From the sequence record OM632664.1: 64,000 nucleotides of DNA; one strand, written 5' to 3'. This DNA comes from Escherichia phage BEU5. This document shows, one piece after another, positions 30,271-51,861 of the stretch. A program made the translations under genes and the position numbers. The first letter of the stretch is position 1. Each line of letters starts with the position of its first letter. The notes beneath the pieces are model-generated. The model was given only the letters and a program-made list of their open reading frames with translations, was not told the DNA's origin and did no database searches.

Positions 30271-30333
30271 AGTAGGTTTCCTATACAAACTTATATCTAT
30301 TAGAAATCACACTATACCTAGTGTAAGGACGAG

Positions 30334-32781: not shown

Positions 32782-35439
32782 TTACGTATCTAAATCAAGC
32801 TGCAACGTTATATCTGCAAAGTTGGTAATCATGTTGTTAGACATGTCAGCTATATCATGACCAGTCATAAGAGTACGGTTAAGGAATGAATCCAATGGCT
32901 CAAATTGTTGGCCTACATTAGTTAGGTTCATTGGGTCAATGTAACCCATGCCCTCAGTGCCAAACATTTCCTCGTACTTTTCCTGAATGGTTTTCATCTG
33001 GTCACGGTACTCTGCCATAAGTTTCTCTGTCTTTTTGACAGTTTCCATAGCAGAAGCATTGATGTAATCACTTATGCCATTTCCTACAGATGAAGTGAGT
33101 TTAATGATGTTATCTGCTTTCATCATTTCACCCAGCATCGTAGACATGGATGAACCAGTGGATAAAGCTGTACCAACATTCATGGCTACCATAGAGGCAA
33201 TGGTAGCAACAATGATTCCAATCTTATCCCCAAGCAGACTAACAGAGACTGTTTGAATAATGGACATCAGAATCATAGCTGCAATGGCATTAGCCACAGC
33301 CCCAACGATAATAGCAGCTAACCCTGCAAAACCTAATGCAGCACCAATAGAAGCAGCAGTACCCATTACCCCAGCACCAGCAGCAGGAGTAAAGAACACA
33401 GACACTACTACTGCAACAACAACCACTACTACTTTAAAGATGCCAGACTGATACCATTTCTTCTTAACTTTCTTATATGAGTTAAGAACCAGATAACAAC
33501 ATGCAGTAGATAACTGAGTACCATTTACCAAAGACATACTACGATAAATGTTGTTATGAAGAGGGATGATAAATCCGGACTCTTCATCATCATTTAGTGC
33601 ATCTACACCAGAAATGCTTACAGATTTATTCTTGTAAACATTATTGTTATGGTTCAGGCCATAGACAGAAATCTTCCTCCATGAATTATCCCCATCCTGC
33701 CAATACATTGTTATCTTATCTAGCCTGTAGATATTAAACCCAACTTTGTCATTACCCTTTTCAGAGTACATAACGGCTTTCTGCATAAGGACTACAGTAC
33801 CTTCATAAGCAAACTTGAGCTGCCCTTTCTTGGCTCCAGAGAATGCTTTTCCCGAACCAACTGACTCTTCAATGAAGTTCCAACTAATAGTCATGTTGTA
33901 ACGGTATCCACCGTTAGAACGAATATTAATGGATTTAGAAGGTATTGTTGGATATACGGGTCTTTTAGGGGGTTTCCCTATGGGAATATCCCTATTACCA
34001 CTACGAGATTTCCACCATTCCTGGTAGGCATCAAAGTCCCTGTTAGCCTGAGCAAAGCCTTCTACCAAAGCATCCATAGTTGGGTAGTTTGGGTCAGCAG
34101 GCATTGACTGATTCACTAACTGGAAGAACCTGTATATGTACTCTTTAGCTGTATTTTCAGGACTGTTAAGAGAACAACCAAATACAGCATAGATATACTG
34201 AATATCACCAATATCTTTATTCTTCTTCAGGTCATCCATAATGTCAGAAATCTTACCCCCTGTAGCCTTCTTAAAGGCTTTCTTACAAAGAGTATATGTA
34301 GAACCAGAAATCCAGTTCTTATCACTACGGATAGGGATGAATGAATAGAATCTGTTATTGGTTGTTTTATTAATAAACAAAGCATCAAGAACAGCATTAC
34401 CACTATTCTGTTTATAAATAAACAGTTGAGGCATACCACCAGCAGACAGAGTAGTAACTACATCTGTATTCTGATAAGACCATGTATAACCTAAAGTATC
34501 TGTAGTTACTGTAGTAGTTCTGGTTTCAGTAACCCCACCACCTAAATCAATAACTTCAGTGTTTGTAGTGGAACCAGTAGATACAGTACCAGTCTGTACC
34601 TGGGTCATTGTAGTCTTACGAATAATGATTAAGCCTACTTCACTTGGTTCACGAAATTCTTTCTCGTAAACATCTGAGAAGTTAGTCCAACTAACCTGTT
34701 CTTCTTCAGTATTGGTACTTTCCTCATCAGGTCTACCATCAGAGAATACACTCTTAATATGAGTAACTGTCTTCAGAGTAGCTGACTTAGGGGTATGGTT
34801 CTGAGATACCTGAGTCCATTCAGAAGTAGAAGGTAAGTCATCAGCAGATGATACAGATACAACAGGATGAACCACTGGGTCTGCAACACTAGTAGGCTGT
34901 ATGTAGTAATAATTCACATACAGATACATTGCATCCTGACTGTAATTCTTTGGATAAAAGGATAACTCACTACCATCAGTAGCAGTGAGTACAATCCTGT
35001 CATCATCCATGATGTCTATTTCAAACTCTTCAGTAATACGGTCTGGATAATTCTCATAGAGGAATTTATCAGCCCATTCCTCAAAATCACCAAATCCAAT
35101 CCTACTGCTCTGAACCTGTACCTCATAACCTGCTTTTTGAGGAACTTGCCATTTAACTACTTCAGGGTCTATCTGAGACAGTACTGACAAGTTCCCATAA
35201 GCAATACCAATTGAAGGGTCATAGTTAGTTGCAGCCCAACCAGGGAATCTACGTAAACGAATACCAGGTCCATTTAAATAAGAGTCAGTGATGGTATCAC
35301 CCATACTAAAGTCAGATTTACTGACGATGTTACCAATCACCGTAGTCTTTAAATAATTTGGACGTTTATGTATATCCCCTGCCAAATTGTAGACAGAGGA
35401 TGCTACGTAGATTTTAGTCTTACTGCTAAACAGTCCCAT
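32782..35439 (-). CDS. large virion protein with a cluster of hydrophobic Gly/Ala-rich membrane-like segments (ejection/channel candidate)
   Basis: 885-aa ORF; about 120-aa region VVVVVAVVVSVFFTPAAGAGVMGTAASIGAALGFAGLAAIIVGAVANAIAAMILMSIIQ... predicted to form several TM helices. Confidence 0.4.
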   Translation of the reverse strand: MGLFSSKTKIYVASSVYNLAGDIHKRPNYLKTTVIGNIVSKSDFSMGDTITDSYLNGPGIRLRRFPGWAATNYDPSIGIAYGNLSVLSQIDPEVVKWQVPQKAGYEVQVQSSRIGFGDFEEWADKFLYENYPDRITEEFEIDIMDDDRIVLTATDGSELSFYPKNYSQDAMYLYVNYYYIQPTSVADPVVHPVVSVSSADDLPSTSEWTQVSQNHTPKSATLKTVTHIKSVFSDGRPDEESTNTEEEQVSWTNFSDVYEKEFREPSEVGLIIIRKTTMTQVQTGTVSTGSTTNTEVIDLGGGVTETRTTTVTTDTLGYTWSYQNTDVVTTLSAGGMPQLFIYKQNSGNAVLDALFINKTTNNRFYSFIPIRSDKNWISGSTYTLCKKAFKKATGGKISDIMDDLKKNKDIGDIQYIYAVFGCSLNSPENTAKEYIYRFFQLVNQSMPADPNYPTMDALVEGFAQANRDFDAYQEWWKSRSGNRDIPIGKPPKRPVYPTIPSKSINIRSNGGYRYNMTISWNFIEESVGSGKAFSGAKKGQLKFAYEGTVVLMQKAVMYSEKGNDKVGFNIYRLDKITMYWQDGDNSWRKISVYGLNHNNNVYKNKSVSISGVDALNDDEESGFIIPLHNNIYRSMSLVNGTQLSTACCYLVLNSYKKVKKKWYQSGIFKVVVVVVAVVVSVFFTPAAGAGVMGTAASIGAALGFAGLAAIIVGAVANAIAAMILMSIIQTVSVSLLGDKIGIIVATIASMVAMNVGTALSTGSSMSTMLGEMMKADNIIKLTSSVGNGISDYINASAMETVKKTEKLMAEYRDQMKTIQEKYEEMFGTEGMGYIDPMNLTNVGQQFEPLDSFLNRTLMTGHDIADMSNNMITNFADITLQLDLDT

Positions 35440-35442
35440 GTA

Positions 35443-36351
<909 letters not shown>

Positions 36352-38327: not shown

Positions 38328-39545
38328 TTATAGGCCGTTCAGCCGAGGTAGTTTCATAAAGTCCTCGTCACTCATTGCAAGAGGATTAACAAGGACTTCT
38401 GTCTTACGCGGTGTAACCCGTGATGGGGATGCCGCTGCTGCCTGTTGAGTATTAGTGATTTCAGACTTAGGAGTTGCAACACGAGTTGCTACTGGCTGAA
38501 CCACTGGTTTAGGTTGTTCAACAGGTTTCTGCTTAATCAAATCATTAAAACCACCATTAGCAGCAAGGTAGTTACCGACTTGATTATAAGCATCCAGGAA
38601 TGCTGTACCGATTGGGATTTGGCCTAAGATTTTGAGTCGTTCAATTTCAGAAACAATACGGTCGTAAATACCGTTAGCTTTCTGTTCAACGATGGTATTA
38701 ACCAGACCACGATTTTCCAGCAATGCCTGTTTGCTGTGGTCATCCCACGTAGTCGAAATTAACTGAAGAGTAGCTTGTCCTTCTGGAGTGGATTTAGCAT
38801 CTTCCAGTTCGGTTGCAAATGCTGCTTCAGCATCTGACACACGGTGATTACCAGCTTGGTATTTAACTTCCTCTTCCGGATTAATATCCAGAACATCAAT
38901 ACCAGATTCTTTAACCAACTTCTTAATAGCATCAGGATTCCCTTTAACTAAATCGATAGCATAAGAGAGTTGCCCTTCATCTAATAATCCGTTGTTTTCT
39001 AACATCAGGAGATACTTACGATACGGCTGAATCTCCTGCATTTTACGGGTATAGTTAGCTCCCATTTGCATCAGGCTAATGACCTCTTCAGGACTTTGAG
39101 GAGTAATCATTTTGCCGTTAGCTTTAAACGGAGCCATTATCCGTTCATAACCAGCCTTATAGTCGAAGTCAGTTTTCTGGTCTGATACCTGCTTGTCTTC
39201 TTCTACTTTTGCTTGGCCTTGCTCAGTAGTAGAAGGTGCATTATCAGTAGCAGGCTTACTGTTGCTGTCAACCTTATTTGGGTCAACTGTAGCACTATCA
39301 TTACCAGTTGTGAATGCATCTGAATTGCTTTCTGATTCAGAAGTATTTTCTACTTCAGTTGGTTCAGTAGTTACTTCTGGTTCATCAGTTTGTTCAACTT
39401 CAACAATTGGGTCTGGTTGTGCAGGAGTATTATTTTCTACCGGTTCCGGGTTGTTCTGAATGCTTGATGGACCAGGCATGTTCAGAATCTCTTCATCCGA
39501 CATTTTAAAAATGTCGGAAGCTGTTTTTGCAGCTTCCGTAGTCAT
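38328..39545 (-). CDS. scaffolding protein (putative)
   Basis: 405-aa ORF immediately upstream of capsid gene; acidic low-complexity N-terminal third (EPVENNTPAQPDPIVEVEQTDEPEV...). Confidence 0.45.
   Translation of the reverse strand: MTTEAAKTASDIFKMSDEEILNMPGPSSIQNNPEPVENNTPAQPDPIVEVEQTDEPEVTTEPTEVENTSESESNSDAFTTGNDSATVDPNKVDSNSKPATDNAPSTTEQGQAKVEEDKQVSDQKTDFDYKAGYERIMAPFKANGKMITPQSPEEVISLMQMGANYTRKMQEIQPYRKYLLMLENNGLLDEGQLSYAIDLVKGNPDAIKKLVKESGIDVLDINPEEEVKYQAGNHRVSDAEAAFATELEDAKSTPEGQATLQLISTTWDDHSKQALLENRGLVNTIVEQKANGIYDRIVSEIERLKILGQIPIGTAFLDAYNQVGNYLAANGGFNDLIKQKPVEQPKPVVQPVATRVATPKSEITNTQQAAAASPSRVTPRKTEVLVNPLAMSDEDFMKLPRLNGL

Positions 39546-45287: not shown

Positions 45288-51861
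<6,574 letters not shown>

Follow-up and report, generated by a model that had tools for sequence, protein, structure and literature searches.

An Escherichia phage BEU5 protein with a long hydrophobic segment: very probably the N4-type tail plug, a gate and not a channel

What does a virion protein do with a Gly/Ala-rich hydrophobic segment of about one hundred residues? The question is raised by a gene of Escherichia phage BEU5 (sequence record OM632664.1), of which a stretch of 64,000 nucleotides, called the window here, was analysed. An initial annotation had proposed, as a hypothesis, that the 885-residue product of this gene is a membrane-inserting ejection protein that forms the conduit for the polymerase vRNAP. 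The gene itself stands as described: an ATG-start open reading frame (ORF) of 885 codons occupies positions 32782-35439 on the minus strand and contains the peptide quoted in the annotation, while a plus-strand reading of the same interval was discarded, that frame being full of stops. The product is the orthologue of gp53 of phage N4, and we put the probability that it is the N4-type tail plug, a protein already known, at about 85%.

The window belongs to an Enquatrovirus and is 100% identical in nucleotide sequence to phage BEU13. At the gp53 gene, identity is 100% with Escherichia phages BEU13 and BEU44 but 98.2% with N4; the phage is BEU13-like and not N4 itself. Both proteins have 885 residues, an identical hydrophobic segment and an identical gene neighbourhood; nine residues differ (99% identity; V86, I90, V193, T277, Y318, K477, N569, N854 and A875 in the window protein), none of them within residues 660-800. 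A phmmer search of the PDB matched residues 1-885 to chain FA ('Gp53') of entry 9YFT (E=0), and the sequence search of this database also returned 9ZE4 chain M, an 'N4 gp53-like protein'. PHROG 2220 (phrog_2220), which carries no function label, matches residues 1-884 (E=0), and scans of Pfam and NCBIfam gave no family above threshold. The protein combines several features of a Schitoviridae tail plug (N4 gp53 / DEV gp74; PHROG 2220): full-length homology to N4 gp53, a globular core with the plug fold, and the two knot elements, one N-terminal and the other the C-proximal hydrophobic segment.

The structure of N4 gp53 has been solved by cryo-electron microscopy (cryo-EM) (PDB 9YFT; Bellis et al., Nat Commun 2026, PMC13434306; preprint October 2025). 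As the tail plug, the protein closes off the 12-mer gp54 tail tube at the tail tip. There is a single copy, held by the C-terminal ~200 residues of one subunit of the gp65 sheath, in an assembly of 12:6:1 symmetry (PMC13434306). Residues 29-56 and 670-716 form six short helices, the 'hydrophobic knot', which cork the base of the tube; the model covers residues 9-724, and residues 725-885 lie outside it in the tail lumen (PMC13434306). The authors also describe a 'feather-shaped beta-sheet protrusion', detected gp53 in virions by liquid chromatography-mass spectrometry (LC-MS) and saw plug density in full and in emptied particles alike (PMC13434306). Identity, copy number, position, knot and retention on emptied particles have been shown by cryo-EM and mass spectrometry on a 99%-identical protein, and from this identity a single copy would be expected to seal the tube in the BEU5 virion as well. 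That the protein belongs to the virion, as the initial annotation had it, is borne out by the LC-MS and cryo-EM data on N4 gp53 and by the detection of the homologue gp74 in virions of LIT1 by mass spectrometry (PMC3715699). On the window, the parts of the protein fall as follows.

32782..35439, minus strand: gp53 tail-plug coding sequence, 885 residues plus stop codon (ORF listing and homology).
35272..35355, minus strand: residues 29-56, N-terminal knot element (PMC13434306; helices 29-40 and 46-55 predicted by AlphaFold2).
34435..34827, minus strand: residues ~205-335, beta-feather of four antiparallel strands of 24-31 residues (AlphaFold2 models, PMC13434306).
33433..33474, minus strand: residues 656-669, basic/aromatic collar KKVKKKWYQSGIFK directly before the hydrophobic run (sequence).
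33292..33432, minus strand: residues 670-716, N-proximal half of the hydrophobic segment, corking the base of the tail tube as part of the 'hydrophobic knot' (PMC13434306).
33130..33291, minus strand: residues 717-770, second half of the hydrophobic segment, mostly beyond the 9YFT model (hydropathy).
32785..33129, minus strand: residues 771-885, amphipathic helical C-terminal tail, placed in the tail lumen (AlphaFold2, low confidence).

The hydrophobic segment consists of two uncharged runs, residues 670-737 (68 residues) and 740-770 (31 residues), separated only by D738-K739, and its ~101 residues (670-770) hold just these two charged ones. Alanine (19.8%), valine (17.8%), glycine (11.9%), isoleucine (10.9%) and serine (9.9%) dominate; A+G amount to 31.7% and L+F+W+Y to 9.9%, with few Leu or Phe and no Trp or Tyr. 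In a 19-residue window the Kyte-Doolittle hydropathy is highest at residue 675, with 2.68; values above 1.6 are reached in 55 windows. The stretch is confirmed as real and non-random, because 2000 shuffles of gp53 gave a longest uncharged run of 25.8 residues on average and 54 at most, against the 68 observed, and because no comparable stretch was found in the other structural-block proteins (gp50, gp51, gp52, gp54-gp57, gp59, gp65 and gp66). gp53 is the sole strongly hydrophobic protein of this block. The ~120 residues first attributed to the segment are reached only with the flanks 663-790. Burial in a fold, the outcome that the initial annotation itself had set against its model, is found for about half of the segment (670-716, in the knot); residues 717-770 lie mostly beyond the model.

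Conservation follows the knot. In an alignment of 22 homologues the most conserved regions are residues 1-70 and 670-716, with a majority frequency of 0.67-0.68 compared to ~0.5 in the core. None of the 22 sequences has a charged residue in the columns that correspond to 670-716 (mean Kyte-Doolittle value 2.01), and G699, G703, A709, G713, N717 and G756 are invariant. Invariant small residues of this kind fit a tight packing of small-residue helices. The collar before the run, which includes a KKVKKK basic stretch, is likewise conserved, W662 and F668 being invariant and K659, K661 and Y663 reaching at least 90%.

An AlphaFold2 model built with the family alignment is confident for residues 1-660. 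The C-terminal tail, conserved with gp74 of Pseudomonas phage DEV, is predicted at low confidence to form helices at 776-783, 788-826, 849-856 and 860-879. Apart from DEV gp74, no fold relatives of the plug core were found, and the aerolysin-type matches of the whole protein in Foldseek had template modelling (TM) scores of at most 0.15. The beta-feather is Thr/Ser-rich, reaches a predicted local distance difference test (pLDDT) score of 89.8 when folded alone, and repeatedly gave weak Foldseek matches to Mpp75Aa1, epsilon toxin and a Bombina aerolysin-like protein. An assignment of the feather to the aerolysin / ETX-MTX2 pore-forming toxins was rejected (E 4.5e-4 to 5e-3, TM scores of only 0.16-0.28); the relationship is not supported, since even the feather modelled by itself gave no TM score as high as 0.3.

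The best-supported reading of the mechanism, and in our judgement a very probable one, is the published reading, in which the plug is a gate and not a channel. In the virion the Gly/Ala/Val-rich segment would be hidden in the tail tube instead of anchoring the protein in a membrane. Residues 670-716 would pack together with residues 29-56 as a tight cluster of short helices that sits in the tube opening like a cork, and residues 717-770, followed by the helical tail 771-885, would run up the tail lumen beside copies of gp52. Binding of gp65 to the receptor NfrA would alter the hold on the plug and displace the cork, whereupon gp52, gp51 and gp50 would pass out through the tube to assemble a conduit across the envelope. 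In this account the triggering step and the part played by residues 717-885 are inferred. A tape-measure analogy for the lumenal tail was considered and dropped, as it has no support from sequence or family. Of the earlier designation 'ejection protein', the part that holds is membership of the genome-delivery apparatus, at the ejection gate; that gp53 is itself ejected is not supported, given the plug density in emptied particles.

Several points weigh against the gate as the full account. The knot explains residues 670-716 only, and some 50 further hydrophobic residues plus a tail of 115 residues lie beyond it. Our own AlphaFold2 model neither confirms nor contradicts the knot, because pLDDT falls below 50 for residues 682-808 and 821-885. 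The published emptied particles had lost their DNA in vitro and not into cells (PMC13434306). In a simple sum over 19-residue windows on the Hessa-2005 scale, residues 665-683 (about +0.6 kcal/mol) and 710-728 (about -0.8 kcal/mol) are transmembrane-competent and residues 740-758 (+2.3 kcal/mol) marginal; residues 670-770 could therefore partition into a bilayer. A Lys-rich/Trp-Tyr collar, finally, is typical of membrane interfaces. It is conceivable, if unlikely, that the cork is put to a second use: having plugged the tube in the virion, its Gly/Ala-rich helices, especially those of residues 717-770, would once displaced enter the bilayer of the outer membrane and fix the tail tip there and/or help the gp52 pore to begin inserting, like the L-loops of phi29 gp9 or a viral fusion peptide. 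The Hessa windows and the conserved collar speak for this, as do the many small-xxx-small motifs in residues 689-713 and 737-770 and a composition with 32% A+G and few Leu or Phe. Fusion peptides and glycine-zipper channel formers typically show such a Gly/Ala-rich, Leu/Phe-poor composition. A precedent exists in the phi29 L-loops, which form a helix bundle in the knob tube and exit to become a hydrophobic barrel (PMC6542822), and gp52, for which pore formation in the outer membrane has been published, is itself no more than mildly hydrophobic. However, each virion has a single copy of gp53, plug and knot are re-seated in emptied particles, the papers cited here report no membrane assay of gp53, and packing of the knot explains the conservation of small residues equally well. 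We consider it doubtful that residues 717-770, with the invariant N717 and G756, and the 115-residue lumenal tail become membrane-active after receptor-triggered unplugging.

Other readings fare worse. That gp53 is ejected and uses several transmembrane helices as the channel for vRNAP and DNA across the envelope, the model of the initial annotation, could draw on the long hydrophobic segment, on a gene that adjoins the gp52-gp51-gp50 ejection cassette and on transmembrane predictions by others: the record of Klebsiella phage KP8 names the homologue 'putative 4 transmembrane helical domains containing protein', and gp53 has been said to be one that 'is predicted to contain TMDs' (transmembrane domains; bioRxiv 10.1101/2025.11.12.688109). 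It is highly improbable and largely refuted by 9YFT, in which the plug is a single copy outside the tube, kept on emptied particles, and the fold within the tube takes up ~47 residues of the segment. It also conflicts with the publication because pore activity lies elsewhere: channel formation in lipid bilayers was reported for gp51 and gp52, and the trans-envelope conduit, ~35 Å wide in the authors' model, was ascribed to gp52 and gp51 together with the gp50 N-terminal domain (PMC13434306). Moreover, a monomer with two to four helices should not be able to line a channel of ~35 Å. A role in the producer cell, where the segment would direct newly made gp53 to the inner membrane so that tails can assemble, or act in lysis timing, and the position in the tube would be secondary, is equally hard to credit. 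Its lead is a rapid-lysis N4 line that bore gp53 Q98R, described by the same authors who note the predicted TMDs (bioRxiv 10.1101/2025.11.12.688109); yet Q98R in a clean background failed to reproduce rapid lysis, and N4 has a defined pinholin / SAR-endolysin system (bioRxiv 10.1101/2025.11.12.688109). Residue 98, besides, is far from the hydrophobic segment. A lysis or holin function of gp53 was rejected, this sole lead not having been reproduced.

Comparison with other tail-closing systems places the gate reading in context. The orthologue gp74 of Pseudomonas phage DEV (9ZE4 chain M; PMC12892993) has the same role as a tail plug, but it counts 740 residues, lacks the beta-feather, and its hydrophobic stretch is shorter. 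What holds it in place is the gp56-gp55-gp54 receptor-binding fibre and not a gp65 sheath (PMC12892993). In phi29, the L-loops of the tail-knob protein gp9 are hydrophobic helices that likewise fill the tube lumen of the mature virion (Xu et al., Nature 2016; PMC6542822). The two proteins are not homologous: gp9 is present in six copies, whose loops leave the tube when the genome is released and assemble into a helix barrel, and its phage has a Gram-positive host, whereas N4 gp53 is present once and its knot is still seated in emptied particles. The ejection proteins of podophages (T7 gp14/15/16; DEV gp73/72/71; N4 gp52/51/50) resemble gp53 in that their genes are adjacent and their release is gated by the plug; they differ in being multi-copy, expelled and channel-forming, while gp53 lies outside the three-gene cassette and stays with the tail. 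The tail needle of P22 (gp26) and Sf6 also shuts a podophage tail channel until receptor contact (PMC12892993). It is a trimeric coiled coil that is released, in contrast to the monomeric, globular gp53 with its internal hydrophobic cork.

The plug family is large. A word-indexed search found 332 homologues of gp53, and a profile of 22 diverse members matched 2,376 cluster representatives at E <= 1e-3; for 1,053 of these the E value was 1e-30 or lower. Homologue lengths cluster at ~880-930 residues, with further groups at 730-850 and ~990 residues; in the shorter homologues listed (~730-850 residues) the beta-feather region lies outside the best-matched stretch, and the sequences examined have no feather. 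The longest uncharged run of 252 homologues has a median of 62 residues, reaches at least 40 residues in 94% and ends at a median of 154 residues before the C-terminus. The hydrophobic module, which extends ~50 residues beyond the modelled knot, is a hallmark of the plug family. A tblastn search with the last 245 residues against 50,697 phage records hit 212 records; the matches listed are all N4-like, of 67-78 kb, and none of them places the module outside Schitoviridae, a result that does not cover the weak tail of the 2,376 profile matches. One homologue of 779 residues (P0196) has a much shortened module of ~35 residues after a WYQ motif, and is either a natural cork deletion variant or an assembly artefact. 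Another (P0120) is filed under a metagenome-assembled genome of Bacteroides thetaiotaomicron, yet lies on a 73-kb contig of phage size. Names in the records vary, among them 'Hoc-like head decoration' in Klebsiella phage vB_Kpl_K57alpha1.2, 'baseplate wedge protein' in Burkholderia phage vB_BpP_HN03 and 'membrane protein' in Pseudomonas phages Arace01 and Meara.

The genes around gp53 run on the minus strand and are collinear with N4, in the order portal gp59, gp58, gp57, major capsid gp56, gp55, gp54, gp53, gp52, gp51 and vRNAP gp50. The ATG of gp53 starts 3 nucleotides past the stop codon of gp54. The placement of gp53 two genes upstream of vRNAP, as first noted, is correct, since gp52 and gp51 stand between them in this order. 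gp53 is not part of the three-gene ejection cassette (gp50-gp51-gp52); it is the next gene and is grouped with gp54 as 'ejection-related'. The neighbours that bear on the plug are the following.

35443..36342, minus strand: gp54, tail tube of 12 copies, sealed by the plug (N4 synteny, phrog_2050 virion structural protein, PMC13434306).
32316..32768, minus strand: gp52, ejection protein of 150 residues, with copies in the tail lumen above the plug (N4 synteny, PMC13434306).
30371..32305, minus strand: gp51, ejection protein of 644 residues (N4 synteny, PMC13434306).
19768..30270, minus strand: gp50, vRNAP, 3500 residues from the ATG (ORF listing, N4 synteny).
45288..49436, minus strand: gp65, sheath / receptor-binding protein of 1382 residues, the last ~200 of which grip the plug in N4 (ORF, PMC13434306).

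Some observations on these neighbours may be added. The published pore former gp52 has no classical hydrophobic stretch (maximum of 0.90 in the 19-residue Kyte-Doolittle window); it combines a Gly-rich N-terminal half with a mildly hydrophobic small-xxx-small helix at about residues 75-95. For gp51 and gp52 the publication itself differs between its parts: according to the abstract, gp51 makes up the complex in the outer membrane and the periplasmic tunnel is formed by gp52, whereas in the Discussion and the legend of Fig. 8 it is the other way round, and the two are paired with DEV gp73/gp72 in an order at odds with protein sizes (PMC13434306). The roles appear to have been swapped somewhere in the paper. 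The vRNAP frame as listed begins with a TTG six codons earlier (30271-30288, minus strand) and would give 3506 residues; the true start is likely the seventh codon, an ATG, which yields the 3500 residues of N4 gp50. The equivalent of the 405-residue gp57 (38328-39545, minus strand) is named 'tail length tape measure protein' in the RefSeq record of N4, an odd label given that the phage is short-tailed and the gene lies between those for capsid and portal; it is probably a mis-annotation. A plus-strand ORF of 124 residues (35368-35742) spans the gp53/gp54 junction antisense to both and shows no sign of being a gene.

Publications of 2025-2026 already describe the protein, where it sits and what becomes of half of its hydrophobic segment, and the finding is in this respect a re-discovery. 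It allows annotation to be corrected in a plug family of more than 2,300 cluster representatives, whose database labels are still 'hypothetical', 'membrane protein', 'Hoc-like' or 'baseplate wedge'. In all Schitovirus plugs, some 50 conserved hydrophobic residues as well as the 115-residue lumenal tail remain beyond the published explanation, and any contact of the cork with the host membrane would bear on how a polymerase of 383 kDa begins its passage through the envelope. If the second, membrane-directed use of the cork held true, the inserted residues 717-770 and the tail would tether the tail tip at the outer membrane and nucleate the weakly hydrophobic gp52 pore, and the plug would serve the Schitovirus ejectosome twice, as its gate and as the element that penetrates the membrane first.

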